Shown here piece by piece: positions 1 to 33,629 of a DNA stretch of 64,000 bases; within the stretch, counting starts at the first letter, position 1; each line of letters begins with the position of its first letter. The notes beneath the pieces are model-generated. The model had not been told where the DNA came from, ran no database searches, and was given only the letters and a program-made list of their open reading frames with translations. This DNA is from Eledone cirrhosa (lineage: Eukaryota), in assembly GCA_964016885.1 (NCBI GenBank), contig OZ024742.1:84630001-84694000 (forward strand), written 5' to 3'. A program made the position numbers and the translations under genes.

Positions 1-63
1 CAACCGCTCTTTCAAACCAGTTCCTGTACACAGCTAAGTATTCTATAAGTCTCTAGCTGTGTC

Positions 64-152
64 ATTCTCGATAAAAGCACTGGATATGTAATCCTGAAGA
101 TTTCTAATAAGAATGAAACGCGTAGGTTACTTCCCTTGCTTTTATCGAGAAT
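64..152 (+). ncRNA. Type I hammerhead ribozyme, copy 1
   Basis: Stem I GTAATC(88-93)/GGTTAC(125-130). Core CTGAAGA 94-100. Stem II TTCT-AATA-AGAA closed by a T.T. GAAA 115-118, palindromic stem III ACGCGT, GTA cleavage triplet (cut after 124). Stem I extends past an internal loop into a perfect 16-bp helix 64-79/137-152. Confidence 0.85.
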
Positions 153-373
153 CTAATTGTAATACGTGACGTATTCTATTCTATAGCGATTAGGTCTTCA
201 AAATGTTTATTATAAACATACAGAATATTTTCGAATATTCTATGTCTATCTTCACATATATATCGCTATTTCAGAGCATTTAATCCAATTTCTAATTTCT
301 GCCGGACCGGCAACCGCTCTTTCAAACCAGTTCCTGTACACAGCTAAGTATTCTATAAGTCTCTAGCTGTTTC

Positions 374-462
374 ATTCTCGATAAAAGCACTGGATATGTA
401 ATCCTGAAGATTTCTAATAAGAATGAAACGCGTAGGTTACTTCCCTTGCTTTTATCGAGAAT
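374..462 (+). ncRNA. Type I hammerhead ribozyme, copy 2
   Basis: Same motif as copy 1, offset +310; predicted cut after 434. Confidence 0.85.
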
Positions 463-683
463 CTAATTGTAATACGTGACGTATTCTATTCTATAGCGAT
501 TAGGTCTTCAAAATGTTTATTATAAACATACAGAATATTTTCGAATATTCTATGTCTATCTTCACATATATATCGCTATTTCAGAGCATTTAATCCAATT
601 TCTAATTTCTGCCGGACCGGCAACCGCTCTTTCAAACCAGTTCCTGTACACAGCTAAGTATTCTATAAGTCTCTAGCTGTGTC

Positions 684-772
684 ATTCTTGATAAAAGCAC
701 TGGATATGTAATCCTGAAGATTTCTAATAAGAATGAAACGCGTAGGTTACTTCCCTTGCTTTTATCGAGAAT
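684..772 (+). ncRNA. Type I hammerhead ribozyme, copy 3
   Basis: Same motif, offset +620. One C>T in the outer helix converts a C-G pair to a U.G wobble. Predicted cut after 744. Confidence 0.85.
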
Positions 773-870
773 CTAATTGTAATACGTGACGTATTCTATT
801 CTATAGCAATTAGGTCTTCAAAATGTTTATTATAAACATACAGAATATTTTCGAATATTCTATGTCTATC

Positions 871-907
<37 letters not shown>

Positions 908-1405: not shown

Positions 1406-1712
1406 GGCTATTTCAGAGCACCAATTCTAATTTTTAATTTCTGCTTCACCGGCAACCGCTCTGTATAATCAGTTACTGATTATTTACTAGAATTCTATAA
1501 GAACCAAACATCCATGATTTCAGCAGACGGGAGGAGTAGTTGGCTTTGATAAGCATCAATAAATGCAGAAACAAGGCCTTGTCAGCTTTATCTCCCCCCG
1601 TTTGCTGAAATTAAAGTGAGTGAGTCTGTCACTACTCTAAAACAATAGCATAAAGTCTTCGAAATGCTTTTAACTAAGCATAAAGTGTATTGCAAAATGC
1701 ACTATATATACA

Positions 1713-1716
<4 letters not shown>
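1406..1716 (+). mobile_element. Diverged solo monomer of the 310-bp retrozyme-like family, flanked by (TA)n
   Basis: Shares gctatttcagagca, taatttctgc, accggcaaccgctct, attctataag and gtcttc-aaatg anchors in the same order and at similar length. (TA)n lies on both sides. Confidence 0.8.
1517..1611 (+). ncRNA. Variant type I hammerhead ribozyme (U3-A8 core)
   Basis: Stem I GGCT(1542-45)/AGCT(1584-87). Core TTGATAA 1546-52. Stem II GCAT-CAATAA-ATGC, extra A1567, GAA. 12-nt palindrome ACAAGGCCTTGT as stem III, GTC triplet (cut after 1583). Outer helix ATTTCAGCAGACGGG/CCCGTTTGCTGAAAT. Confidence 0.65.
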
Positions 1717-1767
<51 letters not shown>

Positions 1768-3890: not shown

Positions 3891-6159
3891 GATTGCAAGT
3901 AATATTTACTACCTCAGATAGATCGCTCGATACATAGATAATTAAGGGTGGATTTCTGAGAAATATCAAGATGTGACCATAACACAATTTGTACTCACTA
4001 CGTTAGTAGAATATAGGCATCTTTATTTTATATATATATGAATTGAAGTTGGTTGTTCAACACTGGATAGAACCTTTCTTTCTGTGTAGTTAACCATGAT
4101 GTATTAGTATGAAAAGCATTCAACCTGACGCAACTCACTGTCGCTTTATTCAATTATATATATGTAAATATTTAGTCAAAGGGCGATCTATTAAATGCTT
4201 CATGAAAATTCATAGTTCATGTACATTTACCTGTTTGTATATAAATGTAAACACATATTAGTGGCAGTTGGAAGAAACTGACAAAGAAAGGAGGATTTAG
4301 CTTTCAGAAAACAAGTATTTTTCATAAGTCAATGTGTCCATTAGGTTAGTTAAGGGACAACTATGGTAATATATTTCGATCTATAAGTTTTTACCAAACT
4401 TAGTAAAGCTGACATAGACATGAGTGTCTATAGCTACGTTTTACGATATAGAAAAACATCACCGATATTTTTGACAACATTATAAAGCAAAAACCTCTCA
4501 TTTTCTGCGAGGGTTTTATTTTATTAAAAAAGAAAATTATCACAAGTTATGAAGAAGCTTATGTAAATAGTCATCAATTCGCGTTGCTAGCTTTTATATA
4601 TTATATATTTGCTGGAGACCGCTTTCCTTTTGAAATGGCAACATAGCTTAAATTATATGTTTATTGTGTTAGTGTTTTATTGTTCAGAGGTTTTAAAGAA
4701 CAAACACTCAGCACCGTGAACGAATGGAACCCGTGATGAATTTACAGTTTTACTTTAGGAAATTTGTTTTCACCCCTATTAGATGTATTTGAACCATCTG
4801 GAATGGAACATTAGGAAATATATTGTTTTCCCATGGATTCAATTCATGCATTTCCAAAGAGAGGATATAGAATAGTAAGGCTTTTAATATCCATCTGATA
4901 TTCTATTGACTTGGACACCTGCTGTTTTCGAAAGCAACACCGAGAATGTGGCTGTATTGTCTTACTGTTTTAGATACAATACATGTATTACTTAGAATGT
5001 GTTACTATACAATACATGTATTACTTAGAATGTGTTACTATAATATGTTGAGTATCTCTATGAAGGAATATTGATATATCTATCAAAGCGTTGATAACTG
5101 TATTGGCAATGTGTCATAATGCATAATACGTGGCGTAAAGCAAGGCTTCTTGGAACGTTATACATGCAAATAGCTCAAATCCACATTAAAATTTCTATTG
5201 CTTCCCATGCAATTTCATAGCACACTTTTCTCAAGAAATATATCTTCAAATAAAGAAATAGACACAATAGGCATGCATTTATACATTTATTGAATAATCT
5301 GATTGATCTGAAAGAAAACATTCAAAGGATACATGGAATTTATCAAGGAGTATCTGAATAATGGTTGGGAAACTCAGTAGATTACTACCGTGAAGTTTTT
5401 GTTTTCGTTTGTCTTTGCCTGGTACTGTTGAAAATTTCGAATGCTGAATAGATGGCGAAATTTATGATTGAAATGCACGAATAGACAATAGTCATAAGCA
5501 TCTTGTTTATATATGAATACAACAAATCATATTAGGAAACTTACAAACATCAAACGCTAAGGTTATTCACACAATGTTATAAACCACTGATTAATGTTAT
5601 CATTAAATAACATTTTATTTTTCTACCAGAATTCATTACTGATTCAGTTTGTTTTATGGTGCAGCATATAATGTAATAGAAAGAAACACGTATATTTTCG
5701 CTATTAAATCTCGGGTATTTTATGAACCAAAGCAACATATCAGGTGTGCTTCTTTTCTGTATCCACACGAAAATAATGTAATTTTGAAAACGTAAGTGAT
5801 ACAAATGATAGTGTATTAGCTGAAAATATTGGAATGTGCGTGATATAAGAGGTTCTGTAATCTCGACAGAGCAGTTAAATTCTACGTCAATGTTTATGTA
5901 TCTGCGTTATCAATTTAAATATTATTATGAGGGTATATACTATAAAACAGCACGCTCTCTAAACATCGTTTTAATATAAAGATGCGTCCAGTATGATTTT
6001 ACAATGATCAAAATAAATTGTTTCCTTTTCCCGAAGACGGAAATCTAATTACGTCTACAATCACATGTAAAATAGGTGATATCATCCATATAGATAGATT
6101 TAACACCTCATAGGCAAAGAAATAGCGGCAGACAAATTCCTGAAGTATGTTATGTTATC

Positions 6160-7488: not shown

Positions 7489-9850
7489 TTCAATGCAAAG
7501 CACGAAGGCTGCGTTGTCAGAGCTAGGGTGCGTGCTCTCAGACACGAGGGGACGAAAGCCGTTCAATGGGCCCGAGTGGCGGAGGCGCGTCGGGGCAATA
7601 AAACCACGATCCGGTCGTTGGTGGACCACGACGGGCGTGTGCTACTCGATCCCGGACAAATGTGTGAAGCTTTTCAGCGACACTTCGCTCAACTGTTCGG
7701 GGGCAGTGGCGGGCCGGATCGAGGGATGCACTTTAGTATCTACCTCGACTGACTGCCGCGGCTTTCGGCCACTGAGGCGGAGAGTTGCGAAAAGCCGATA
7801 ACAACCGCTGAAGTACGGGAGGCAATGACTGGCTGCACAAGGGGTAAATCGCCTGGTTTGGATGGTCTGCCCTATGAACTTTACGTACAAATGCCAGACC
7901 TGTTCGGAGGCCTCTTGGCGGACGTCTACTGCAACTGGCAACAGAACGGGAGAATTCCCAGCTCTGTGAGGCGAGGAGCGGTGGCGCTGCTGAGAAAGGA
8001 TCTGAACAAGGGGGATAACATAGATAATTTTAGGCCCATAACTATGCTAAACACAGAGTTCAAGATTTTGGACAAGGTGTTAGCTACGAGGTTGGCGCTT
8101 GTCGTTGGTGGTCTGGTGGGGGAGGCACAGACATGCGCCATTCCCGACAGATCCATCCACGACAACCTCCACCACATGCGATACATCGTAGAGAGGGTAG
8201 CTAGGGAACCCGGCACGGGTGGGTCTTTGATCAATTTAGATCAGTCGAAAGCCTTCGATAGGGTCGACCATCGTTACCTAGCGGCAGTCCTGAGGGCGGC
8301 TGGCTTTGGACCTGTCTTCAGAGGCTGGATCGCTGCCATGCACAGCGACATCTGCTCTGTAGTGAGAGTGAACGGTCACCTTTCGGAACCGTTCAACATC
8401 ATGCGCTCGGTCCGCCAAGGATGTCCCCTCTCGTCCCTATCGTACGTATTGACTCTCGAGCCATTACTGCACAAACTGGAGACGTTGAGGGGGGTCTCGC
8501 GCGAACTAGGATGCGGAAGATCCGTGTCAGCATATGCGGACGATGTCACCGTAGTGGTGTCGAACGCCAAACACATCGAGGCGATCGGCACTACACTAAG
8601 AGAATACGAAGCGGTGACAGGAGCAATGATCAACGAGGAAAAGTCAGTGGGCCTGCAGCTCGGCACCTGGAGAGGCAGGTCCATGCCGTCCAACAGCGTC
8701 GTCGGGCGCTGGACGAACGGACCGGTTAAATTGCTAGGGGTCTGGTTCGGTCCAGACCTCCAGACGGACAAAAACTGAGACGAGGTGACAAGCAGGGTGG
8801 CTTCTCTCACCCAGAAATGGGCGGAGAGGAAGCTATCCTTGAAAGGTCGAGCGGAGGTGGCTAACGCGTACATCGCGTCTGTCATCTGCTACCGCCTGAC
8901 CGTCGTACCTTGTCCTAAGCCTCGCCTGACTGCGCTGGAGCGTTTGCTCTTTCGCTTTTTGTGGAAGGGACGCGCTCCGATGGTCAGGCGGTCCATCTGT
9001 TGTCAACACCCGCTACGTGGAGGGCTGGGCATGCCGTGGCTGATGATGTGCAGGCACGCGCTCAGGCTACGACATCTCAACCTCTTCCTAGACGGTGATC
9101 AGGTGTGGTCGCTGTTTGCTAGACCCGTATTTCCCCAACTCGTTTCCTTGACGGAGCTTCAGTCCTGGGTCAAGCGAAGACCGAGAGGGAGCGCCTGGAG
9201 ACTGGAATGTCTTCAGGCGCTCAGAGCCCTCGACCAATCGGGCAATGTGATCGGTGGAAACTCCACCTCGGCGTTCTATAGACGATTAGTGGAGGGGAAG
9301 AGCGACGACGTACTTGGGGAAACTCTAGGCCTCGACGAAAATCAACTAGCCAATCTCTTCGGAAGAACTTTCGGGCCGGAGCCTATGGACAATTTCCAGA
9401 AATCTCTGGCCTGGCAGTGTTAACGAGGAGCTTTGCCAGTTCGGGATAAACTCTGCAGGCATGGAGGTGCCGTCAGTTGGGCATGTCCGAAAATCAGAGT
9501 AGAGAGGGAAGTGCTCTCTTCCCAGCATTTTGTTGAAAGATGGGTGAGAGAAGCAAGAATGGCCTGAGTGAATGGGCCTACTCTGAGTTTATATCTGTAA
9601 GTTGAAGGTGAAAACTGGGAGAGGGCACTTGCCTTGGTGGTCAGGGTCACAGTGGCCTTTTACTGGGCTTTCTCCACAAATGTCCCTCCGAAGTCTCACC
9701 CCTATTGGGGTATTTTTCATTGTTATTTTTTTGTTACATCCTCTGTTTTTGTTTTTTACACGCAGAAATGCCCATTTGTACCGTCCTGTATCGTCCTACA
9801 CTGTCCTTAATGTCTACTTTATGTAAACCCTTGTGGTTAATAAAGAAATC
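7489..9850 (+). mobile_element. Tx1-type LINE (A-type ORF2/3' UTR), 5'-truncated, with internal deletion near 9490
   Basis: RT ORF 7825-8778 (KSPGLDG, NFRPITML, DQSKAFDRV, SVRQGCPLS, YADD), premature TGA, continuation 8785-9423. Ends AATAAAGAAATC + (ATT)n, with (ATT)n on both sides. Confidence 0.92.
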
Positions 9851-12800: not shown

Positions 12801-15641
12801 TGACGGGTGCGATCGTCAACAACAGGTGGTGGCTTCTCTGAGAAGGGCTATTAGAGTAGAATCGATAAGGTTTGGCAAAAGAGTAGTGATAGAGGAAAAT
12901 AGAGTAGAGGGAGAGTTAGTTAGAAAGCTAGAAGAAGCGTTTAGGACAGGCATCGCAACCGACGTGCTTGCCGCGAGATTGGCACTCGACCAATTCTTCA
13001 ACGTAAAGCATGGGGGCTGCGTTGTCAGAGCTAGTGCGCGTGCTCTAAGACACGAGGGGAGGAGAGCTGTTCAATGGGCCCGGGTGGTGGAGGCGCGATG
13101 CGGCAAGAAGTCCACAATTCGGTCTGTGCCTGATAAAAACGGGCGTATGTTGCTCGAACCCGAGCAGATGTGTGCGGCTTTTCAACATCACTTTGCTCAA
13201 TTGTTCGGGAGCGGTGGCGGGCCGGTTCGGAGTATGGACTTCGCTGCATACCTCGACGGATTGCGGGGCAGTGCTGCGAAAAGCCAATAACAGCAGGTGA
13301 AATACGGGAAGCGATGTCTGACTGCACGAGGGGTAAATCGCCAGGTTTGGATGGTCTGCAGTACGAGCTTTATGCGTATATGACAGACTTGTTCGGCAAC
13401 CTCTTGGCAGATGTCTACTGCAACTGGCAGCAGAACGGGAATATTCCCAGGTTTGTGAGCCGGGAGCGGTGGCGCTGGTGAGAAAAACCCGAACAAGGGG
13501 GACGTTATAGACAACTTCAGGCCCATATCTCTGCTAAACGCAGAGATATGGGCCTACTAAAGATTTTGGCCAAGGTGTTAGTTAAAGAGATTGGCGCTTG
13601 TCGTTGGTGATCTGCTGGGAGAGGCGCAGACATTTGCCATCCCGGAGAGATCCATCCACGACAACCTCCATCTCATGCGATATATCATAGAGAGGGTGGT
13701 TAAGGAACCGGGCACGGGTGGGGCCCTGATCAAATTGGATCAATCTAAAGCAGTTGATTGGGTCGACCATCAGTACCTGACTGCGGTCCTCGACGCGGCC
13801 GGCTTAGGGCCCGGTTTTAGGGGCTGGATCGCTGCGATGCACAGCAACATCTGCCCGATTGTGAGGGTGAATGGTCACTTGTCGCAGCCTTTCAGCATCA
13901 TGCACTTGGTCCACCAGGGTTGCCCCCTCTCGTCTCTCTTGGCCCTAGAGCCGTTACTGCACAAATTGGAGACGATGAGGGTCGTCCCACGCGAACTGGG
14001 ATGCGGGAGATCCGTGTCAGCTTTCGCCGACGACGTCACCGTGGTGGTGTCGAGCACCAAACACGTCCAGATGCTCGGCACCTCTCCCAAGGAATACGAA
14101 CCGGTGACAGGAGCAAAGATAAACCAGGAAAAGTCAGTGGGCTTGCAACTCTGCACCTGGAGAAGCAATCCAATCGTCCGACAGCGTCGCGAAGGTCTGG
14201 ACGGAAGGGACGATTAAATTGCTCTGAGTCTGGTTCGGTCCTGTCCTCCAGATAGTGAAACACTGGAGCGAGGTGAAGAGCAGAGTGGCCTTTCTCACCC
14301 AGATATGAGCGGAGAGGAAGCTATCCTTGAAAGGTCGAGCGGAGGTGGCTAACGCGTATATCGCGTCCGTCATCTACTACCGCCTGACCGTCGTACCTTG
14401 TCCTAAGCCCCGCTTGACTGCGCTGGGCGTTTACTCTTTCGCTTTTTGTGGAAGGGACGCGCTCCGATGGTCAGGCGGTCCCTCTGCTGTCAACATCCGC
14501 TACGTGGAGGGCTGGGTATGCCGTGGCTGATGATGCGCAGAGACGCGCTCAGGCTACGACATCTCCACCTCTTCCTCGACGGTGATCAGGTATGATCTCC
14601 GTTTGCTAGACACGTCTTTCCCCAGCTCGTCTCCTTGACGCAGCTGCAGTCCCGGGTCAAGATAAGACCGAGAGGGAACGCTTGGAGACTGGAATGCCTT
14701 CAGGCGCTCAGAGCCCTCGACCAATCGGGCAATGTGATCGGTGGAAACTCCACTTGGCGTTCTATAGAGGATTAGTGTGGGGGGGGGGGGGGCGACTACG
14801 TACTTGGAAAAACTCTAGGCGTCGACGAAAATCATCTAGCCAATCTCTTCAGAAGAACTTTCGGGCCGGGGCCTATGGACAACTTCCAGAAATCTCTGGC
14901 CTGGCAGTGCTACCGAGGAGTTTTGCCAGTTCGGGATAAACTCTACAGGCATGAGGTGCCGTCAGCCGGGCATGTCCGAGATGCGCGCAAGGCGACGAAA
15001 CCGTCCTGCACGCACTCGTCCAGTGTCCGAGCATTGCTGACTTGTGGGTTTATGTCGAACACCTGCTGTTGCGTGTAGGACGGATCCAGCTATCAGCTGA
15101 GTCCATCGTGAGGATTGCCCCGCCCTCTTCCTTTAGCCGGGAAGGGCAGGCAGTTTTTATCTGTCTGGTGGCCATGGTGAAAGAGATAGTATGGTGGACA
15201 CGTTTGAAAGGGCTGAAGACGAGCACTTACCTCTTCGGTGATGCCCTGATTAACTTTTTCAAATTTCATCTGAAAAGGAAAATCAGGGTAGAGAGGGAAG
15301 TGCTCTCTTCCCAGCATTTTGTTGAAAGATGGGTGAGAGAAGCAAGTATGGCCCGAATGAATGGGCCTTCTCTGAGTATGTGTCTGTAAATTAAAGGTGG
15401 AAAACTGGGAGAGGGCACTTGCCCTGGTGGTCAGGGTCACTGTGGCTTTTTAATGGGCTTTCTCCACCAATGTCCTTCGTAAGTCTCCCCCCTATTGGGG
15501 AATTTTTTTCATTATTCTATTATTACATCCTCTGTTTCTTTTTTTTTTACACGCAGAAATGCCCATTTGTACCGCCCTGTATTGTCCTGTACTGTCATTA
15601 CTGTCTACTTTATGTAAACCCTTGTGGTTAATAAAGAAATC
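9881..15641 (+). mobile_element. Full-length decayed Tx1-type LINE, chimeric (B-type 5'/ORF1/EN/RT, A-type 3' third)
   Basis: Starts at G directly after (ATT)n. Broken ORF1 from ATG 10046 with KCYLCGQ zinc knuckle. ORF2 ATG 12011, APE motifs (LVGDWNGIL, YLDRV), RT (FADD), C-terminal CPRC...H...C. Many frameshifts. Ends in (ATT)n. Confidence 0.92.
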
Positions 15642-15664
15642 ATTATTATTATTATTATTATTAT

Positions 15665-17110
15665 TACACTAAGAGAATACGAAGCGGTGACAGGAGCAAT
15701 GATCAACCAGGAAAACTCAGTGGGCCTGCAGCTCGGCACCTGGAGAGGCAGGTCCATGCCGTCCAACAGCGTCGTCGGGCGCTGGACAGACGGACCGGTT
15801 AAATTGCTAGGGGTCTGGTTCGGTCCAGACCTCCAGACGGACAAAAACTGGGACGAGGTGACGAGCAGGGTGGCTTCTCTCTTCCAGAAATGGGCCGAGA
15901 GGAAGCTATCCCTGAAAGGTCGAGCGGAGGTGGCTAACGCGTACATCGCGTCCGTCATCTACTACCGCCTGACCGTCGTACCTTGTCCTAAGCCCCGCCT
16001 GACTGCGCTGGAGCGTTTGCTCTTTCGCTTCTTGTGGAAGGGACGCGCTCCGATGGTCAGGCGGTCCATCTGCTGTCAACACCCGCTACGTGGAGGGCTG
16101 GGCATGCCGTGGCTGATGATGCGCCGACACGCGCTCAGGCTACGACATCTCCACCTCTTCTTCGACGGTGATCAGGTGTGGTCGCCGTTTGCTAGACGCG
16201 TTTTTCCTCAGCTCGTCTCCTTGACGGAGCTGCAGTCCTGGGTCAAGCGAAGACCGAGAGGGAGCGCTTGGAGACTGGAATGTCTTCAGGCGCTCACAGC
16301 CCTCGACCAATCGGGCAATGTGATCGGTGGAAACTCCACCTTGGCGTTCTATAGGGGATTAGTGGAGGGGAAGAGCGACGACGTACTTGGACGTGCCGTG
16401 CCAGTTCGGGATAAACTTTACAGGCATGGAGGTGCCGTCAGCCGGGCATGTCCGAGATGCGCACAGGGCGACGAAACCGTCCTGCACGCACTCGTCCAAT
16501 GTCCGAGAATTGCTGACTTGTGGGTTTATGTCGAACACCTGCTGTCACGTGTAGAATGGATCCAGCTATCAGCTGAGTCCATCGTGAGGATTGCCCCGCC
16601 CTCTTCCTTTAGCCGGGAAGTGCAGGCAGTTTTTATCTGTCTGGTGGCCATGGCGAAAGAGATAGTATGGTGGACACGTTTGAAAGGGCTGAAGACGAGC
16701 ACTTACCTCTTCGGTGATGCCCTGATTAACTTTTTCAAATTTCATCTGAAAAGGAAAATCAGGGTAGAGAGGGAAGTGCTCTCTTCCCAGCATTTTGTTG
16801 AAAGATGGGTGAGAGAAGCAAGTATGGCCCGAATGAATGGGCCTTCTCTGAGTATGTGTCTGTAAATTAAAGGTGGAAAACTGTGAGAGAGCACTTGACC
16901 TGGTGGTCAGGGCCACTGTGGTCTTTTAATGGGCTTTCTCCACAAATGTCCCTCGGAAGTCTCCCCCCTATTGGGGAATTTTTCTTTGTTATTTTATTTC
17001 ATCCTCTTGTTTTTTTTACACGCAGAAATGCCCATTTGTACCGTCCTGTATTGTCCTGTACTATCCTTAATGTCTACTTTATGTAAACCCTTGTGGTTAA
17101 TAAAGAAAAC
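15665..17110 (+). mobile_element. Tx1-type LINE (A-type), 5'-truncated, small internal deletion near 16390
   Basis: Open C-terminal ORF2 frame to 16865 including CPRC-x8-H-x4-C. 3' UTR as in the other A copies, with (ATT)n on both sides. Confidence 0.92.
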
Positions 17111-17569: not shown

Positions 17570-19460
17570 TTAATTGTAAGTTGTGATGTTGCTGTTCCAC
17601 TCATATTTTCTATTTAATTTTGGTTTTAATTCTTTTATGCTTACTGCCTCTGTAATTTGCCTAAACATTGCGTCTTTTCTGTGCGTGGATTCTATTTTTA
17701 TTTCTATGCTCTCTAATCTACCCCTGTGTTCTATCTTAGCATGTTGGTAGAGCACAGATGATTCTTTATTATCTTGGAGGTCTCGCCAGTGTTCATTTAT
17801 TCGTTCCCCTATACTACGAGCTGTCTCACCTATGTACACTATATTTTTGTTTCTACATTGTCCTTCAGTACATCTTATGCTATACACTACATTTCTAGTT
17901 TTACAGTTAATATGGGGGCTTATTTTACAGGTTATACATTTCTTATCTATACATGAGGGTCTTTGGAACGGGTATGTCTTGCTAATAAGTGTTTTTACGG
18001 AGGTACCAGGTCTTTCTACTATTTTAATATTGAGATTATGTTTATTTAGGGCCTTTCTAAATTTGTAGGCTAGTTCGTCTCTAGGGGTTGTATTGATGAA
18101 CATTACACTCTGGTATTTATTGCTATCATACCATGAGTTTATTCTATTGGCCTTGTTCCTAGTTCTTTCTATTCTATTCCAAAATTTGCTCCTATACAAG
18201 GGGCAGGTCCCATTTATGTCATTATTTACCATTTTTTCCCATTTGGTTCTGGCTCCTTTATACACTCTGATTCTATCTCTCTGATTGTAGCCAGAGAACT
18301 GCATACGGTGGATGAAGTGTTGTATGTGTCTCTCTAGTTCTTCGGGGTTGCACATGCGGGACACATTTCTCATCACCCGTACCAAATCCGCAATCAGTAT
18401 GTTGATTTTGGTATGGTCCGAAATGGCCGAGTTTCGGTGGATCAGATGTTTGGAAGTCATGGGTTTGGCATAATGGGAATGGAGGATTTGTTTTTGGTTG
18501 TTAATGGTATCTAACCAGAGCTCTGTGTCTAGTACAGGTAATCGATGGTTGGGGTGTCTACTTGGGTAGTCTATAGTAACTCTAATGCTCTGGTGGATGG
18601 AGTTTGCTATTTGCTGGATGCTTTCCATTGTGTTTTTCTCTAGTTCCTGACTGTTCTTTAGTGGGGGTGTCTTAACTACGATGTTTATATCATCTACGTA
18701 GCGGGAGTACATTATCAGGGTTAAACTGTCTTCTAATTGTTCATTAAGTTTTTTGTTTAAGTCTACTGTCCCACCATACCATGAATAAGTTAGCTATGTC
18801 GCCTGCAATGCTAACACCAATGGCTGCTCCTTCCTCTTGGGCATATGTTTTACCATTAAATTTGAACATATGTTCCTTAAGGGTTAATTTTATACTGGCC
18901 CCTACCGCATGTGCAATCATTTTCTTCAGTTCATCGTGGTTTTCGGGTGTCCGTATGGCTCTGGTCCACCCGTTCCATCTATCTGTGTGGGTTTTCTTGG
19001 CCATTGAGGTAATGGTAGGTGGTCTGCCTCTTGCTGGTCTTGTAGGGCACAGGTTGCTAAGGTCATAAGTGTCTAGGTAACTATTACTATGGGTAAGCTT
19101 AAGTAGAAGTCCCAGCTCACTGGTATCAATCCCACGGAACTCAACCTTGCTCTCGCTGATCATTTCTACGCATTTCTCCACAGCAAAATCCACGCCAATA
19201 GATGGATACAGGGACACAACATCCATACTGCCTAATATGCAGTTTGTTAGGTCCCCAGATCGGTTACCCGCGCCGATTCTGCTGAGGAGGTCCTCCGTGC
19301 TGTCACACACATCTGGGGACATCTCAATGATGGGGCGTATGATCAGGGAGAGGAAGTAGGACAGTCTGTAGTTACTAGCAATGTTAGCCCCACAGACTGG
19401 TCGTGTTGGTGGTCCCGTGACAGGGTCCCAGCCCGTTTTATGGTCTTTTCGAAGCCCATA
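17570..19460 (-). pseudogene. PLE RT/GIY-YIG ORF, truncated inverted copy with a 1-nt frameshift near 18750
   Basis: ORFs 18744-19322 and 17570-18712 match the + copy. There is an extra base in a homopolymer run. Confidence 0.9.
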
Positions 19461-19509
19461 AAACGGGCTTTGTTTGTTAGGTCCCCAGATCGGTTACCCG
19501 CGCCGATTC

Positions 19510-21654
19510 ATGCAGCGCTCGCGTAATGGAGAGATAGCATGTTTTCCAACAGACAAGTCTGGCAGAATGTCGGCTGACAGCCTGCCAAACTACATCCAGG
19601 CAATGCAACCCCACATCAATAACACAAGAGAGGTAACACCACAGGAGCATGAGGATAGAGAAAAAGCCCTCAATGCCCATATGGTGATGTGGACAAATAT
19701 AATGCAGCCCAACAAAAGGACTGCCAACAACTTCCAGGCCTGGAACAATGACGTGCCGGCGTTGTATGGGCTTCGAAAAGACCATAAAACGGGCTGGGAC
19801 CCTGTCACGGGACCACCAACACGACCAGTCTGTGGGGCTAACATTGCTAGTAACTACAGACTGTCCTACTTCCTCTCCCTGATCATACGCCCCATCATTG
19901 AGATATCCCCAGATGTGTGTGACAGCACGGAGGACCTCCTCAGCAGAATCGGCGCGGGTAACCGATCTGGGGACCTAAGAAACTGCATATTAGGCAGTAT
20001 GGATGTTGTGTCCCTGTATCCATCTATTGACGTGTATTTTGCTGTGGAGAAATGCGTAGAAATGATCAGCGAGAGCAAGGTTGAGTTCCGTGGGATTGAT
20101 ACCAGTGAGCTGGGACTTCTACTTAAGCTTACCCATAGTAATAGTTACCTAGACACTTATGACCTTAGCAACCTGTGCCCTACAAGACCAGCAAGAGGCA
20201 GACCACCTACCATTACCTCAATGGCCAAGAAAACCCACACAGATAGATGGAACGGGTGGACCAGAGCCATACGGACACCCGAAAACCACGATGAACTGAA
20301 GAAAATGATTGCACATGCGGTAGGGGCCAGTATAAAATTAACCCTTAAGGAACATATGTTCAAATTTAATGGTAAAACATATGCCCAAGAGGAAGGAGCA
20401 GCCATTGGTGTTAGCATTGCAGGCGACATAGCTAACTTATTCATGGTATGGTGGGACAGTAGACTTAAACAAAAACTTAATGAACAATTAGAAGACAGCT
20501 TAACCCTGATAATGTACTCCCGCTACGTAGATGATATAAACATCGTAGTTAAGACACCCCCACTAAAGAACAGTCAGGAACTAGAGAAAAACACAATGGA
20601 AAGCATCCAGCAAATAGCAAACTCCATCCACCAGAGCATTAGAGTTACCATAGACTACCCAAGTAGACACCCCAACCATCGATTACCTGTACTAGACACA
20701 GAGCTCTGGTTAGATACCATTAACAACCAAAAACAAATCCTCCATTCCCATTATGCCAAACCCATGACTTCCAAACATCTGATCCACCGAAACTCGGCCA
20801 TTTCGGACCATACCAAAATCAACATACTGATTGCGGATTTGGTACGGGTGATGAGAAATGTGTCCCGCATGTGCAACCCCGAAGAACTAGAGAGACACAT
20901 ACAACACTTCATCCACCGTATGCAGTTCTCTGGCTACAATCAGAGAGATAGAATCAGAGTGTATAAAGGAGCCAGAACCAAATGGGAAAAAATGGTAAAT
21001 AATGACATAAATGGGACCTGCCCCTTGTATAGGAGCAAATTTTGGAATAGAATAGAAAGAACTAGGAACAAGGCCAATAGAATAAACTCATGGTATGATA
21101 GCAATAAATACCAGAGTGTAATGTTCATCAATACAACCCCTAGAGACGAACTAGCCTACAAATTTAGAAAGGCCCTAAATAAACATAATCTCAATATTAA
21201 GATAGTAGAAAGACCTGGTACCTCCGTAAAAACACTTATTAGCAAGACATACCCGTTCCAAAGACCCTCATGTATAGATAAGAAATGTATAACCTGTAAA
21301 ATAAGCCCCCATATTAACTGTAAAACTAGAAATGTAGTGTATAGCATAAGATGTACTGAAGGACAATGTAGAAACAAAAATATAGTGTACATAGGTGAGA
21401 CAGCTCGTAGTATAGGGGAACGAATAAATGAACACTGGCGAGACCTCCAAGATAATAAAGAATCATCTGTGCTCTACCAACATGCTAAGATAGAAAACAG
21501 GGGTAGATTAGAGAGCATAGAAATAAAAATAGAATCCACGCACAGAAAAGACGCAATGTTTAGGCAAATTACAGAGGCAGTAAGCATAAAAGAATTAAAA
21601 CCAAAATTAAATAGAAAATATGAGTGGAACAGCAACATCACAACTTACAATTAA
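19510..21654 (+). CDS. Penelope-like RT + GIY-YIG endonuclease (N-terminally truncated but open; Cys-linker, Neptune/Nematis-like)
   Basis: TDKSG, LYGLRKDHK, RPV, MDVVSLYPSI, GAAIG, RYVDD, LPVLD. Linker C-x4-C-x2-C. VVY...C...C...YIGET.R...R..EH...H...EA. Confidence 0.9.
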   Translation: MQRSRNGEIACFPTDKSGRMSADSLPNYIQAMQPHINNTREVTPQEHEDREKALNAHMVMWTNIMQPNKRTANNFQAWNNDVPALYGLRKDHKTGWDPVTGPPTRPVCGANIASNYRLSYFLSLIIRPIIEISPDVCDSTEDLLSRIGAGNRSGDLRNCILGSMDVVSLYPSIDVYFAVEKCVEMISESKVEFRGIDTSELGLLLKLTHSNSYLDTYDLSNLCPTRPARGRPPTITSMAKKTHTDRWNGWTRAIRTPENHDELKKMIAHAVGASIKLTLKEHMFKFNGKTYAQEEGAAIGVSIAGDIANLFMVWWDSRLKQKLNEQLEDSLTLIMYSRYVDDINIVVKTPPLKNSQELEKNTMESIQQIANSIHQSIRVTIDYPSRHPNHRLPVLDTELWLDTINNQKQILHSHYAKPMTSKHLIHRNSAISDHTKINILIADLVRVMRNVSRMCNPEELERHIQHFIHRMQFSGYNQRDRIRVYKGARTKWEKMVNNDINGTCPLYRSKFWNRIERTRNKANRINSWYDSNKYQSVMFINTTPRDELAYKFRKALNKHNLNIKIVERPGTSVKTLISKTYPFQRPSCIDKKCITCKISPHINCKTRNVVYSIRCTEGQCRNKNIVYIGETARSIGERINEHWRDLQDNKESSVLYQHAKIENRGRLESIEIKIESTHRKDAMFRQITEAVSIKELKPKLNRKYEWNSNITTYN

Positions 21655-21854: not shown

Positions 21855-21899
21855 AGTCACTGAAGAGGTCACAGAGTGTGTGACGAAAGGACTATGACT
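21855..21899 (+). ncRNA. Minimal type I hammerhead ribozyme in PLE 3' repeat (right arm)
   Basis: AGTCA-CTGAAGA-G-GTCACA(GAGTG)TGTGAC-GAA-AGGACT-A-TGACT. Perfect 5-bp stem I, 6-bp stem II, intact core, predicted cut after 21894. Confidence 0.82.
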
Positions 21900-24800
21900 A
21901 TATATATAAACAACTATCTGGTTGTGGAACCAACCAACCAACCAGAAATTTATAATTTATAAGTTTGTAGATTTGTAAATTTATGAATTTATAAATATAT
22001 AATAAATTGAAGTGAAAGCAACTGGTGCGTGTGTTTCTTATTGGCAACATGACCCTCCCAAAGTTGAACAATATCGGTTTCAACACACGATTTCAGATAA
22101 AGAATCTTGCTAAACAAATTCAGAAACGAAATATTGTTATTTTATTTTCTTTCATTGTTGTTTCTGAGATATATGCCGAGTGGCTTCCTGACACCTAGGG
22201 CAAATAAATTCACAGTGTGTATTGGTAAGTAAGTTAATACAGCACATTGGTTATAATTGAAAAACAAAACAAAAAAAAAACAGTATACATATATACACAT
22301 ATGCATATATAAATACAAGGAGGGATATCAATCTCACAGAGATAGTACTCTTCTCAATACGTGTGCAGTACCAGTCAAAACAATATTTTGCACCACATTC
22401 GCAAATATTGTTCTGTTCCTTTTTTGATCATTCCCAGTCCTCCCACAATCACTGGTATCGAAACAGCCTTGATGTGCAACATTTTATCAATTTCAATAAG
22501 CAGATGTTTATATTTTCGTAGCTTGTCAAATTCTTTAGCCGCGATATTGTGATCACATGTTATGCTCATATCTATCAACAAACAGACCTTGTTATGTTGA
22601 TCTTTTATAATGATGTCAGGTCTACTTGCTTTTATGGTCCTGTCTGTATGTACAGGAAAGTCCCAGAGAATTGTTACTTTTTCTCCTTCAGTTGCAGCCT
22701 CAGGGTGATTTTGTAATGCCGACATATTACCCAGTGTAGATATTGACCAACTCTGTCATGTCTATATTTGTATTCTACTGGTGCTAAAACTTTAAACCCA
22801 GAGACTAAGTGATCCACTGTTTCAATCCCAGAACTGCAGAATCACCGCTTTGGGTTTATTCCGTTTCTCATCACACTGCGCTGGTAATTACAAGTCAATA
22901 AGCTTTGATCTTGGGCAGCTAAGATGAGGCCTTCACTCTCCTCTTTTAGCCCTGAACTACGTACCCACTGATGGATGTGCTTTTGGTCAACATCAGCTTG
23001 TTTTCTACGGGCCATATAATTGCCATGCAGTGGTTTCTGCTCCCAATTTGATGCTAATTGTCCTTGCCATTTTGCTTTCGTCAGTGATTTTATGTGCCTA
23101 GCAGCATCAGTTGCAACAGTTTCTTTAGTCTGTCCAGCCTGGGTATCAAGCATGAGATCAGTAGCATGTTTTTTGCTCTCCTTCAAGATAGAATGAAGCT
23201 TCTTACTTCTCTCATGCTTTTCAACACGTTTCAGCATACAGTCGTTAGTTGTTTCAAGGTATTTGGCCAGTCCAATGATGGTGGTCTTGTAAGCAATTTC
23301 AAATTGGATCAGGCCACGGCCTCCTTGAGTTCTAGGAAGGTAAAGACGGTCTACATCTGATTTTGGGTGGTTCATCCTATTACAGGTCAGTAGCTTACGG
23401 ACGTTGGTGTCGATTCTTTTGAATTCACTCATATTCCAGTTCAACACACCGAAGCTATAAGTGACAACTGGGACTGCCAAGGAATTTAAGGCTAGCACCT
23501 TTTTACGAGCATTTAGTTCTGATCTCAGAACTGTACGTACTCCCCTATAACATTCTTTCCTTATCCGCTCTTTCATACTTGCATGCTGTATGCCAGAGCC
23601 CTCATTAATCCCTAAGTATTTATAGGTTTGCTCCTGCTCAAGTTCCTTTATGATTGTTTCAGCATCCAATTCAACTGAGTCTGAGTTGACAAGCTTCCCC
23701 TTCTTGAAAGTGGCCTTTGCACACTTGTCAAGTCCAAACTCCATCCTGATGTCATCGCTAAACGTTTTTGCTGTCCGCAAAAGGCCTTCCAGTTCATCAT
23801 TATCTTTGCAATATAACTTCAAATCATCTATATAAAATAGGTGGCTTATTTTTTTGTTGTCAATTCCATAATCGTACCCTGTTCTATTAAGTTGTGATGT
23901 AAGGGGTATTAAAGCTATGCAGAAAAGAAAGTGAGTCACCCTGGAATATACCACAGTTGATGTTTATATTCCTAGAGCATAGTACCCCAGTGGAATGAGA
24001 CAATTGAATATTTGTGTTCCATAATGACATATTGTGTTTCAGGAAGTTTGAGATCGCAGGTGAGATTTTGAAGATGTCCAGTGATTTCAGAATCCATGAG
24101 TGCGGTATGCTGTCAAATGCTTTTTTATAATTGATCCATGCAGAACTGAGATTTCTGTGTTTATTATGACAGTTCTCAAGGATCATACGATTAATCAAAA
24201 GTTGATCTTTGAAACCATATAAACCTCTTCGGCACCCTTTTTGTTCAATGGGGAAAAGATTGTTCTTCTCCAAAAACACGTATGCTTTTTCCATGAGAAT
24301 AGACGTTAATGGTTTATAAGTGGTGGACAAGCTCGTTATGGGCCTATAGTTTTTTGGATCTTTGGTTTCGTTGTTCTTTGGTAGAAGGTAGGTAATGCCA
24401 CTTGCTATCCAATCGTGTATTTGTTGGATCTTTCATAATTCCATGAGACAACTTGACCAATATATGTGAGTGCACGGGAGTGAGGAAAGCCAGAAATTTG
24501 GCACCCTGTCTCTACCAGGAGATTTCCATTTATAAGATTTATTGAGTGCTGTCCTTAAGTCCGCTATAGAGATGTCGTCCCACGCCTGTTCTTCTAAATT
24601 TGTGTACCATTTTTCCAGTCGACTAATCCGATCTACATTAGCATTATATGTCTTCTCATCACTCAAAATCTTACTCCAGAAGTTTTCAACTTCTATTATC
24701 TTCAATAATAATTTTTTTCTTCCCTACTTCTCTATAAAATGATTTGGCATTTGATGAGAACAACTTATTTTGCCTGTAGAAGGTGTTTCGCTTCTCGAAT

Positions 24801-25158: not shown

Positions 25159-25341
25159 GGTGTATTGGCAGTATCGGTAGAGGGTCGGACGCAATGCTTT
25201 GACGCATAGAGTTACGTCCCTTGCCATTCTGAGTTCAAATCCCGCCAAGGTTAACTTTTCCTTTCATCCTCATGGGGTCGATGAAATAAAGTACCAGTAA
25301 TGCACTGGGTAATTGCTGGCCTTGTGCCAAAAGTAGAAACA
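25159..25341 (+). mobile_element. SINE with 11-bp TSD
   Basis: Matches 2669-2851. TSD attatttgtta at 25148-25158 and 25342-25352. Confidence 0.88.
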
Positions 25342-25370
25342 ATTATTTGTTAATTATTTGTTTTCTATTT

Positions 25371-25461
25371 TAACTTTACCTCTCATCCTTACGTGGTCGA
25401 TAAAATAAAGTACCAGTAATACACTGGATTAATTGCTGGCCTTGTGCGAACAGTAGAAACA
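25371..25461 (+). mobile_element. 5'-truncated SINE with TSD
   Basis: 3' half of the SINE, flanked by attat(t)tgttttctatttt on both sides. Confidence 0.85.
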
Positions 25462-26335
25462 ATTATTGTTTTCTATTTTGGATTGTATTTGGGAGTTTTT
25501 GAAGTGGTTCGCTATCATTTATACTAGAATGTCTTACTACTGCAAGCTCATCCAGTACTTTTTGCTTTAATTCCTTCATAGTCTCCATGTGTTCTTCAGC
25601 AGATGTTTGGTTTTCAATTACTGTTTCTAAGTCACTCTCCTGGCTATTTTCAGCGTGTTCAATAGGGCTTTTTATTTCTACAAACCCATTTGTGATTTGG
25701 TCAGATGGAGGTCTTTCAGTAAAGACTCGTTACTGATTGCTATCTCCAGGAGATTCTTCAGTTCTTTCATCATTTATATTTATGTCATTCTCTACAGCCT
25801 GCTTGATCGCAGTTAGTTCAGTGTCTGTGAGTCTATTAATTCTGACGATATACCTCCTTACATTTGCCAACTTATTTCCATCCATATCACGTCTGCTAGC
25901 TTGATTCCGAGTTTGCCAGATTTTGTAGGAGTTTAAATTGTGTCTGTCTTGTGATGGCTTACCTAATGCATAGTAATATGCATATATTAATTCTTTATAC
26001 TCTTCTCGGGTCCATTTCATCCTTTTAGGTTTTTCTTTTTGAGGTGGTTTGGGTGGTGGATCTGGAGGGCTTGAGTTGGGGCAATCACCAATCAAGTAAC
26101 CATCCAGGTCCATAATTGGAGAAGAGTTTGTGCCAGAGGAGGAATTTTTGATCTCAGGTTGGCACCATCCCGAGGGACGCGCGTCCTGATTAACCATAGG
26201 AAAAGCGATTTGGTATTGTGTATTAATTGTTATTTGTTCATCTAGCAGTACATGCTTGCGTTACGTATGGTATTGGACGTACATGGAAATGTGCCCGTCT
26301 CTTTGGGTAGTGCATTTGCTGGCTGGCACTGATAT

Positions 26336-29666: not shown

Positions 29667-32600
29667 TCAGATATTCAGGGCGTATCGGAGGGTTCTTGCC
29701 GTTCCAAGCAAGCATGCCTTTTGAAGCGTTCCAAAAAGCGTGAAGGGGCCGATTTTCTTTAACCATCCCTGGAAACCTTTGGAGATAGTCCCCAGTGCGC
29801 CTATGACAATCGGGATCACTTTGACTTCATGGCAGTTCCAAATCCTTTTCACCTCCCACTTTAGGTCCTGGTATCGGTTAATTTTCTCCCTCTCCTTCTC
29901 TTGCACTCTCGTGTCGAACGGGCAGGCCACATCCACAATCAGGCACGATCTTTTTTCTTTGTCCACAACCACCAGGTCAGGTCTATTGTGTTCCAGTTTT
30001 TTGTCCGTCTGTATCCTAAAATCCCACAGCACCTTCACCTGACTGTTCTCCATCACCGCCTCTGGCCTATGCTCATACCATTTCTCAGAATGTGGTAGAT
30101 TGTTTACTTTGCACAGGTGCCAGTGGATCACCCTGCCCATCACATCGTGTCTCCAGCCCTTATAGTGGGTCTGGGCTAGGTGTTTACACTCGGACACAAT
30201 GTGAGCCACAGTCTCCTCTCTCTCTCCACAGATCCTGCACAGTGGGCTAGCCTCCTCCTTGTAGATATGGTGCTTCAACCACTTCGTTTTGAGGGCCTGC
30301 TCCTGCGCAGCCATTAGCATTCCTTCTGTAGCCTTTTAAGGTCTCCTCTTCTCAACCAGTTCCATGTCTGTGGATCTCTAAATTCAGTTTTCTCAAAGAA
30401 GGTACTATGAAGGGATTTTCCCTTAAGGCTGCTCTTCCTCCTTGATGTTATTTCCTCCTTGGGTATCCCCTGGCCTACTGTCCCCTCCTTCAGTACAGCT
30501 CTGAGCATTGGCTCCTTACTATAGGTCACGTATTTGTATAGGTTGTTTTTCTCCATCTGAACACAGTCCTCTATGCTGATAAGACCTCTTCCACCCTCAG
30601 ATCTCCTTAGGTAGAGTCTATCGACATCACTCCTCTTGTGGAACATGTTGTAGATAGTCAATAGCTTCCTAGTCTTCCTATCCATTTCTTTTTGTTCAGC
30701 AACATTCCATCTCAGAATTCCCGCACTGTACCTAATAATAGACACAGCTCGGGAATTTACTGCGCTTATGGCATTTCTGCTGTTCAGATGTGACTTCAAT
30801 ACGCTCCTTACTCTCCGAATGTATTCAGTTCTTAACAATTCCTTCATTTTTTTGTTCTTTATGCCATCAGCCTCCAGAACGCCCAAATACTTGTATCCTT
30901 CCTCAGAGTCAATTTCCTTTATCATCTCACCTGTTGGTATCTGGATCCCGTTACTTCTGCTCAACCTACCCCTCCTCATCACAATGACTCCACATTTACC
31001 AATACCAAACTGCATACATATATCACTGCTGAAAATACGGACAGTGTCAACAAGCACATCCAACTCCTTCTCACTTTTCCCGAAGAGCTTAAGATCGTCC
31101 ATGAAGAGGAGGTGATTGATGGTAAGCTCTCCCCTTCCCAACTTGTATCCTGCTCTCACTTTTCGCAGCATAATGGTCAAGGGCATCAGGGCAAGGACAA
31201 ACAACAGAGGGGACAGGCTATCTCCCTGGAAGATACCTCTCTTGATCTTCACGCTTCCCAAGGATACTCCAGTTGATGTCAACTCTGTCTCCCAGGACCC
31301 CATACTCCTGCCCAGCAACTGTCTGATGTTATCTGCCACCCTGAAGACCTCCAGGCTTTTGGTGATCCAGGAATGAGGCACCATGTCAAATGCCTTTCTG
31401 TAGTCTATCCATCCCATGGCAAGATCAGTGTGTCTCCTCCTGCAATTCCCCATTACCATCTTATCAATAAGCAACTGGTCCTTTGTATCACGTGACTTCT
31501 TTCGGCATCCTTTCTGTTCGTCCGGTAACAAGTTGTTTGTGTGGAGGTGATGGTAGATTTCCTCAGACACAATGCTCGTCAACAGTTTCCACATTACGGG
31601 CAGACATGTAATAGGTCTATAGTTGGTAACATCATTACCCTTGATTCGGTCTTTCATTATCAGAACTGTGGTACCTTTTGTCAACCACTCTGGCACCTCA
31701 CCCGACACCAAGCAGTCATTGAACATGGCCGTCAGCTTCGGGTGGAGGGATGTTAAATGTTTAATCCAATACCCCTGCACACCATCTGGGCCTGGTGATT
31801 TCCAGTTGGTTAGTTTTTTGGCTTGCCCCTTAAGAGTTTCAACTGTGATACTCAAATCAGTCTGTTGTTGTGCCTTCTCACCGATCTCCCTCTGTACTGT
31901 CTCAATCCACCCTGCCTGGGCATTGTGTCTAACATCCTGCTCCCATATTCCTCTCCAGAATGTTTTAGCTTGTTCCGCCCCAGGGATCAAGTCGTTGCCT
32001 CTTTCTTTCCCCTCAAGCTGTCCAAACAGCATCTTCTGGTTGTTGTCGAACATGCGGTTCTGTTTATACTGACTGACTCTGTTCTCGTATCGCCTGATTT
32101 TGGCACTCTTTGCTACAATGCGTTGCTTCAATTCCTCTATGATAATATTTAGCTTTTTACTCCTAGTTTTGTATTTTATTTCCAGTCTATTTTTAGTGCC
32201 TATGTTTTTTAGTGTCCCATTCAGTAGTGACTCAAGCTTTCCTATGTCATTTCTCATTTCCCCGATTTGCCCACTCAGTCGCTTCTTCCACCACGGCTCT
32301 GCTCTTTCTTGTCTGTTGTTTCCTCTCGCTTTTATACCAAGTAGTTTCCTCACCGTATTTGCTGTTGCTTTGAGGATATTGTTGCACTGGTGAAGACTCC
32401 TCGCCTCAAGGTATGGGATGACTTTGTTTACCTTAGCTGTTGTTTCTTTTAACTTTTTCCTGTCTACAAATCTTAGGTTCATAGGTCTCCCACTATCATT
32501 GTTCAACTCATCTACCACTAAATTTAGGATGTCAACCGAATCTTGTCCTAGCCCGTCAGCATCCATCTCCTCAGTGGCCGTATCTCTGTTCCAGGTATTA

Positions 32601-33058
32601 TTTATCTCAGTATTCAGATCATTGTCTGCTTCGGGTGGTTCCTCCGTTCTCAGGACCTCCTCACCTTCATTTCCCGCCGGCTCGCTTGTCTGGCATACTA
32701 CACCCGCCATCTCCAAGCCATTCTCTCTGCTCAGTTCCTCCAGTTCCGGCTCGCTTATCCACCCATTAGTTCTTATTACCCGAGCCTGCCCGGCCAATTT
32801 TTGTTCATCTAATTTAAATAAACCAATCTCGTTCCAGATGTTATGCATCCGTCTCCTGTAGCCCCTCTCCTTGGGGTTACTTTTCAGGTAGCATTGCATA
32901 ACAGTTCTATTCAATTCTTTCGTCCAGTTGGTTCTGGCCCCTTTCCTTCTTCTTCTTCCTCCAACATCAGCAGTATTTGGTTGACAGTCAGGTTCCTGCT
33001 GCTGAGCCAGGGGGCACCTGTTGGGTGAGAGTCTGTCACATGACGTTCTAGTCTCCAT
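29667..33058 (-). CDS. R4/Dong polyprotein (RT, CCHC zinc knuckle, RLE), about 1130 aa, single frameshift near 30335
   Basis: The 914-aa ORF (WKSPGPDG, NYRPITCL, QGDSLSP, FMDD, YKYLG, GGRGL) and the 217-aa ORF (CRIC...H...C, RPD, KINRY) join if one base is restored in an A-run that has 5 nt in sister copies. Confidence 0.88.
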
Positions 33059-33629
33059 TTCACCGTTATTCGAACTGTTTATGTTCGATATTTAAACACT
33101 CTTATCGAGGATTTGCGAATGTATGTTTACATAGCCATCTGTGGATCCGCCATCCCACTTGGCCCTTGTGTGGCATTATCACCACGCTGTATACGGACAC
33201 ACATAAACAAACAAACACACGGGCAGAAAGGGCCCCAAAAATGAATAAGCATAAGTTTCATTGTAATGTAGTATTCGAATGTCTGACTTAGTTTTTGTTT
33301 TTTAAGTTTTACTTCCCCCCCCCCCTCTTCTCTGTCCGTCCGCCTGCTTCTCTCTTCATTCTTATTTTCTTTACGTTTTTGGGGTTTCTTTTTTTGTTTT
33401 TGTTTTTCTCTGTTTTTCTCGTTTTTTACTGTTGTTGCTGTGCTGCTTTTGTTGTTTGTTTTTTCTTTTTTCTTTTGAGTCTATCTATATATTTTGATGC
33501 CTTCCTCTTTGTTAGTAGTAGGAATTCTATAATGTGGAAGTGGTAGCCAGCAGAGACTGGCGGCGTTGGCGATACTGAGACAGTGGTGGTGGTGATGTCG
33601 ATACCGAGGCAGTGGTGGCGGTGATGCGA

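Follow-up and report, generated by a model that had tools for sequence, protein, structure and literature searches.

A predicted U3-A8 hammerhead ribozyme inherited in a large branch of a high-copy repeat family, probably non-LTR retrozymes, in Eledone cirrhosa

The window analysed here, i.e. a stretch of 64,000 nucleotides from contig OZ024742.1 of Eledone cirrhosa, begins with a tandem array of hammerhead-bearing units, followed by a single, highly diverged copy whose ribozyme core reads UUGAUAA instead of CUGANGA. This raises the question whether the double change at positions 3 and 8 reflects the decay of one copy or the inherited state of a working ribozyme. Based on the sequence analyses described here we consider it likely that the copy is a solitary non-coding repeat of ~320 nt, presumably a non-LTR retrozyme, and that it carries an inherited type I hammerhead with a U3-A8 pair which probably still cleaves. 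The copy itself is an ordinary dispersed repeat and probably a dead end; as it is a single unit between microsatellites, no unit-length RNA can come from it alone.

The hammerhead consists of three helices around the core and is open at stem I (Table 1). Stem I, stem II, the palindromic stem III, the GUC triplet, and the UUGAUAA core all lie where a previous reading of the sequence alone (the sequence-only reading) had placed them. The outer helix it described is also present, although not with 15 bp: the exact arms comprise 14 bp (1518-1531/1597-1610), whereas the minimum-energy fold extends the helix to 17 bp, including one G-U pair. The unit had been delimited as 1406-1716, of which the start is nearly right, but the 3' end has to be shifted to ~1726. 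Within the core, positions 3 and 8 form a Watson-Crick pair, U3-A8 replacing C3-G8, and U4, G5, A6, A9, G12, A13, A14, A15.1-U16.1, and H17 are canonical, i.e. apart from the 3-8 pair the window copy deviates only by one additional base ahead of G12. The internal loop of stem I and the A-rich loop 2 are retained across copies. This fold is more stable than those of all 100 shuffled sequences (z -5.36), and a type I descriptor that allowed C3-G8 or U3-A8 plus one extra base had no match in 2,000 dinucleotide shuffles of 1406-1716. Across the whole window the same descriptor found only the three array ribozymes, the monomer hammerhead, and the two arms of a Penelope-like element. An Rfam scan of the whole window at gathering thresholds yielded no match and is non-discriminating, as the canonical ribozymes of the array and of the Penelope-like element were missed as well.

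No open reading frame of at least 120 aa overlaps the monomer, which is preceded by a mixed TA/TG tract (1354-1406) and is 95-97% identical to dispersed genomic copies (40 of 1,775 candidates scored in the 3.0-Gb assembly). Like a non-LTR retrozyme, the repeat is short and non-coding, has one type I hammerhead in each unit, and occurs both in tandem and dispersed. A further mark of this class is lacking in the window copy, a lone monomer, but is found at 13 of 51 loci of its subfamily and in U3-A8 runs of 6 units.

Table 1. Features of the retrozyme copies and of the Penelope-like element in the window
Feature	Position	Strand	Basis
Array subfamily, separate insertion; 310-bp units, core CUGAAGA at 94, 404, 714	1..883	+	
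Solitary retrozyme monomer, ~320 bp, U3-A8 clade, extra-A sub-lineage	1407..1726	+	ends from natural tandems
First 25 nt of unit; optional 3' tail in other insertions	1407..1431	+	insertion ends at 51 loci
14-nt motif common to monomer and array subfamily	1449..1462	+	genome-wide exact matches
Ribozyme domain; hammerhead enclosed by outer helix (1515-1531/1597-1613) plus distal stem I (1533-1536/1592-1595)	~1514-1613	+	fold
Type I hammerhead	1542..1587	+	sequence, descriptor test, pair counts
Stem I, GGCT/AGCT	1542-1545/1584-1587	+	read from sequence
Core TTGATAA = U3-U4-G5-A6-U7-A8-A9 (U3 = 1546, A8 = 1551)	1546..1552	+	
Stem II, GCAT/ATGC around CAATAA	1553-1556/1563-1566	+	read from sequence
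Extra A between C11.1 and G12	1567	+	sequence
GAAA	1568-1571	+	sequence
12-nt palindrome ACAAGGCCTTGT, stem III within; predicted intermolecular stem III of double hammerhead	1571..1582	+	two-strand fold
GTC triplet	1581-1583	+	sequence
Predicted cleavage site after C17 of GUC	1583..1584	+	hammerhead numbering
(TA)n tract entered by 3' end of monomer	1703..1765	.	
Penelope-like element, inverted pair; terminal repeats to ~17170 and ~22060	17570-21654		weak RT and GIY-YIG Pfam hits

The array insertion has one more unit left of the window start. When the monomer is aligned with an array unit, 75/106 positions of the 5' flank (71%) and 69/105 of the 3' flank (66%) are identical, as opposed to 42/91 (46%) within the ribozyme domain; judged by these alignments the two are homologous. 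As the flanks are clearly homologous, the former description of the monomer as almost unrelated to the array is roughly right for the ribozyme alone. Similarly, the statement that every pairing is kept is inexact at 10.1-11.1, since stem II of the array closes with a U-U mismatch. Across subfamilies the flanks (1407-1513 and 1614-1726) are more conserved in sequence than the ribozyme. They include the 14-nt motif, which has 18,704 exact matches in the genome (reversed control: 0), and might possibly harbour a promoter or a protein-binding site. Elsewhere, e.g. at G000:C5:55925749-55935549 and C1:15433883-15438291, the array subfamily is organised in long head-to-head arrays whose 310-bp units are nearly identical and number ~30 in one example. 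Such an array may mark an inversion point from which multimers extend both ways, as rolling-circle copying combined with Penelope-type inversion would give.

When positions 3 and 8 were left free and the flanks were matched exactly, 495 places in the genome were found, 494 of which have U3. The only one with another base has C3 together with A8, i.e. C3-G8 occurs in none of the 495 places. Thus, the other copies do not have the canonical CTGATGA, UUGAUAA represents the consensus as far as positions 3 and 8 are concerned, and the double change is, as had been proposed, not a private product of decay: the U3-A8 core is inherited and fixed in a clade of thousands of copies. In contigs from three runs of one sample, which is of unrecorded kind, possibly the assembly's own, and not counted as independent evidence, other letters make up <5% at 1546 and 1551. 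In the wider family Y-U-G-A-N-R-A cores are present at 4,177 places, counted with an upstream anchor that leaves out the array subfamily; 2,653 of these cores are U3-A8 and 1,419 C3-G8, leaving ~105 mismatched ones by subtraction. As the patterns demand the rest of the core, these counts are uninformative on its conservation. They do bear out the expectation that a strict CUGANGA search would miss the U3-A8 ribozyme, and surveys of this kind can miss the larger part of a retrozyme branch. The proposed coexistence of two subfamilies, in contrast, has to be replaced by many subfamilies, with a graded series linking the C3-G8 and U3-A8 forms.

Covariation was assessed with 99 distinct copies on contig C1, drawn from the region that the first 100 listed matches cover; four truncated or deleted rows were dropped and the array unit was excluded, so that the alignment comprised 95 copies and the window copy. 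The hammerhead structure pairs 94.0% of the cells in this alignment, with two-sided changes at 20 of 29 pairs, counts that are inflated by the kinship of the copies; 0 of 500 shuffles were as high in pairing and two-sided change, and slid controls showed 39-54% pairing. In the 95 distinct rows two-sided changes affect 9 of 12 pairs of the outer helix and 3 of 4 pairs of distal stem I, and the 3-8 pair is UA in 46 rows, CG in 44, UG in 2, and something else in 3. Positions 3 and 8 covary across the family, and so do the helices; owing to the shared ancestry of the copies, the covariation of 3 and 8 goes back to about two events.

These events can be placed on a tree of 96 rows that was calculated with the 7-nt core masked, five rows (the long-branch array unit and the four damaged copies) having been left out. 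In this tree 44 U3-A8 rows and two rows with a single change form one clade (100/98) nested among C3-G8 lineages, and a second U3-A8 group of three rows (94/94) is located inside a distant C3-G8 group. A single U3-A8 clade is rejected by an AU test that came after a look at the unmasked tree (p-AU 3.7e-5); the bootstrap is not fully settled and the root is a midpoint root. The topology argues that the switch likely arose twice. Alternatively, the second group might have received a short core patch by template switching or gene conversion, in which case there would have been one switch only. The small size of this group, just the three tree rows and two further copies, and its 94/94 support in a core-masked tree with a bootstrap that is not fully settled would be compatible with such a transfer, but stems I, II, and III around the core belong to the group's own lineage, so that the patch would have to be 7 nt or little more, and we consider this course of events unlikely. 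In the unmasked tree the nearest C3-G8 neighbour of the main clade (L222) already has G10.1-C11.1, and the other C3-G8 lineages mostly have A-U or U-U at these positions. This suggests that G10.1-C11.1 was a permissive first step before the switch, an idea backed by one event only; in the second U3-A8 group (L173, L180, L194, L346) stem II starts with an A-A mismatch at its base, in contrast to the G-C of the main clade. An amplified U3-G8 or C3-A8 subfamily was not seen among the sampled copies.

The fate of the core after the switch was followed in a core-blind sample, i.e. the first 100 of 2,841 matches to a flank-only pattern outside the core, corresponding to 70 insertions; an earlier pattern with too long a gap had caught just 79 long variants and was redone. 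U3 is present in 95 and A8 in 99 of the 100 copies. Variants common to at least four insertions affect 27 of the 47 other sites and none of the 11 catalytic ones (Fisher p 4.3e-4). The sites in this test lack independence, and several sites outside the catalytic set show the same invariance. One of these, N7 (window 1550), is U in 100 of 100 copies, as compared with U, G, or A in the C3-G8 subfamilies, and the 3-8 swap may constrain it. The youngest non-array subfamily sampled is a U3-A8 subfamily (median identity 98.6%, 8 loci), the corresponding value for the window's subfamily without the extra A being 96.7% (13 loci), and one U3-A8 insertion comprises 6 units at a period of 316 bp, the longest tandem run of this type. 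Taken together, the switched core appears to have stayed constrained, which is the best evidence that the switched ribozyme remained useful. The sequence-only reading had ascribed the double change to selection on catalysis rather than to decay; inheritance and constraint of the core agree with this, while the role of catalysis is still a matter of interpretation.

The extra A ahead of G12 does not belong to the consensus, but defines a minority sub-lineage of about a third, being present in 178 and absent from 318 exact matches of the window subfamily. It is found in 8 of the 96 rows of the masked tree, with four changes, and is missing in about half of the depth in the above contigs of the one, possibly assembly-own, sample. 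A register with a 6-nt core and an A-A mismatch was rejected, as the majority of copies retain G10.1-C11.1 and have no extra A. It could be that the window copy and the rest of the extra-A sub-lineage are catalytically dead and were cut in trans by palindrome-sharing partners without the additional base. The youngest U3-A8 subfamily indeed lacks it, and some core insertions are described to lower hammerhead activity (in passages of PMC3088659); the 178 exact copies and the persistence of the extra A in a second subfamily with altered stem I and intact core render a dead sub-lineage rather improbable, and the extra A is likely tolerated or mildly harmful.

How a ribozyme of this type might be switched is indicated by predicted folds, the energies of which ignore tertiary contacts. 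In the monomer GGCUUUG (1542-1548) pairs with CAAGGCC (1572-1578) with a probability of 0.98, which ties up U3, U4, and G5, and the active fold lies 5.2 kcal/mol above this off state. Two copies are predicted to form a double hammerhead with a 12-bp intermolecular stem III (-99.3 kcal/mol, compared with -45.2 kcal/mol for the off-state monomer), matching the dimer model for animal hammerheads (PMC4209133). The same type of dimer is predicted for three other sampled subfamilies with perfect palindromes; where stem III has an odd length, as in the youngest U3-A8 subfamily and the array, the dimer of lowest energy does not adopt this fold. The off-state helix comprises 7 bp in the window copy; for the family, a version of it is predicted by RNAalifold. 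Selection on this helix itself was rejected, since part of it simply follows from the palindrome, and young U3-A8 subfamilies with a CAUG or CAAGUC stem III have it in broken or shortened form; it is kept as a folding prediction only.

The mode of insertion was studied at 51 loci of the window's subfamily (what remained of 60 after removal of 9 overlapping ones; L052 and L054 are possibly one duplicated insertion), a sample biased to full copies, as it was chosen by likeness to the window copy or exact core match. Both orientations are present at 34 of the 51 loci, and at 30 an arm ends 25-48 nt into the next unit. TA-rich DNA follows 58 of 84 arm ends, and most remaining arms stop at the unit junction, far from the cleavage site. 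These insertions show partial tandems, inverted 5'-truncated arms, an optional tail, and a microsatellite target, all of which are hallmarks described for Penelope-like elements (PMC8557442); there the tail measures 30-40 bp, and it has been traced back to reverse transcription starting at two internal sites (PMC11167929). Thus, the insertion anatomy points to the Penelope machinery, and copies that read through the cleavage site would require a circular or an uncut multimeric template. In some copies the 5' half of the ribozyme is replaced by an inverted 3' half, resulting in long palindromes (G000:C2:32965770, C3:3802083, C12:1730466, C21:35085588), likely by template switches within a hairpin. 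That the family is a satellite DNA which recombination or rolling-circle copying of DNA has spread without any RNA step, leaving the ribozyme as a relic, would fit the long near-identical tandem runs of the array subfamily, but not the dispersed 5'-truncated and inverted copies with fixed 3' ends, tail, and TA targets, nor the covariation of the RNA structure; this already disfavoured explanation is extremely improbable.

A candidate for the protein is encoded in the window itself. The Penelope-like element has an open frame of 730 aa with a reverse transcriptase and, at its C-terminus, a GIY-YIG domain, and each terminal repeat contains a canonical hammerhead (core at 21860 on the + and 17364 on the - strand). 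Neighbours of the protein in the Atlas have GIY-YIG and HTH_animal, its C-x4-C-x2-C linker is of the Neptune/Nematis type (described in PMC8557442), and PDB sequences yielded no match. The family is young, with 97-100% protein identity among 137 scored copies. Its arm ends are followed by (TA)n in 19 of 36 cases, counted by eye; copies of the family either stop in (TA)n or continue beyond ATATC, which resembles the retrozyme junction. Between the retrozyme and this family no homology was detected (30 loci of one family among 41,096 Penelope candidates in the genome; best E 0.031). With its own canonical hammerhead and without homology to the retrozyme, this family is a candidate carrier only.

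In the mechanism we propose, tandem source copies would be transcribed, and cleavage at GUC would take place once two neighbouring hammerheads have paired via their palindromic stem III. After its release the monomer would be circularised and rest in the inactive fold, with U3-U4-G5 paired to the stem III strand. A Penelope-like RT/GIY-YIG protein might then copy the circle or a multimer into (TA)n targets from two start points ~25 nt apart and far from the cleavage site, and such copying could give rise to the partial tandems, inverted 5'-truncated arms, and tails observed. Alternatively, Penelope might copy the U3-A8 lineage from linear read-through multimers, i.e. no cleavage would be needed, and the core would be kept for its fold, for protein binding, or as a historical accident of a few source copies. 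Hammerhead cleavage was dispensable for insertion of one Penelope element in vitro (PMC11167929), the insertion ends of the retrozyme lie ~140-170 nt from the cleavage site, and the monomer is predicted to fold into the off state. Nevertheless, all 11 catalytic positions lack subfamily-level change, whereas the stems change with compensation, and the 3-8 pair is preserved although it lies outside the predicted secondary structure, so that its retention points to a tertiary active site. Propagation without cleavage is thus quite unlikely in our view. Returning to a ribozyme that cleaves, we can extend our reading to a scenario that is possible, if somewhat doubtful: the valley between C3-G8 and U3-A8 would have been crossed twice, in the main case after G10.1-C11.1, and the switched lineage, now the larger branch, would use an off-monomer/on-dimer switch and be moved by a Penelope-type protein whose recognition of it requires no terminal-repeat homology.

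The literature searched contains no account of the family, of a U3-A8 core in non-LTR retrozymes, or of insertions between 11.1 and 12, and its lone match to UUGAUAA is a pistol ribozyme and not a hammerhead. Such variants may be described in two works, i.e. that of Przybilski and Hammann from 2007, which reportedly deals with 3-8 exchanges in the hammerhead, and a 2017 study that is said to treat Penelope-associated hammerhead dimers. Natural U3-A8 hammerheads as such are already published, though the change is seen only rarely, and of interest is the family with its ordered high-copy record rather than the window copy. The switch can be traced through thousands of copies in ordered subfamilies, with neighbouring changes before and after it, which provides a natural series for the context that lets a ribozyme active site swap a core pair. 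Natural hammerheads with the same 3-8 covariation, including U3-A8, which is stated to be active in vitro on the basis of earlier work, have been reported (Perreault et al. 2011, PMC3088659), in the form of several examples as opposed to the high-copy mobile lineage described here; the passages of that study at hand do not mention an insertion between 11.1 and 12. In Cercyon Penelope-like elements of Schistosoma mansoni ~1,300 U3-A8 motifs were missed by a first descriptor (PMC4209133). These share the core covariation with the present family, but they are, unlike the hammerheads here, minimal motifs in Penelope terminal repeats with a long helix II and no helix III, and in the passages at hand no tree of the U3-A8 switch is given.

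In its testable marks the family agrees with the non-LTR retrozymes of metazoans (Cervera and de la Pena 2020, PMC7229834), and it would work similarly. It differs from them in the U3-A8 core of its non-array majority, in a stem III with a palindrome of up to 12 nt, and in the insertions of the window's subfamily, most of which comprise one or two full units with inversions; moreover, RNA circles are demonstrated for those retrozymes, whereas those of the present family are putative. A dependence of retrozymes on Penelope has been argued, mostly with vertebrate data, from the co-occurrence of the two and from homology of terminal repeats (Li, Clavereau, Pollet 2026, 10.64898/2026.07.22.740005), and 8 of 9 Xenopus retrozyme dimers were inactive in vitro in that work. 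Those retrozymes resemble the present ones in their co-occurrence with Penelope-like elements and in forming monomers, dimers, and multimers; here, in contrast, tail, inversion, and TA target are found, and homology to the examined Penelope family is lacking. Tail, inversion, and (TA)n are direct insertion evidence on the question whether Penelope-like elements mobilise animal retrozymes.

The window contains several other repeats. Between the array and the monomer lies a 72-bp inverted repeat (94% identical; 991-1062/1290-1361) of another kind, a piece of which also flanks copies in L062 and L076. At 2760-2850 and 25251-25467 there is a short interspersed repeat, presumably octopus-like, and fragments of other retroelements with reverse transcriptase or endonuclease are located at 7753-9423, 13582-14217, 15618-16865, 22842-23963, 30314-33091, 51707-52312, and 58859-59524.
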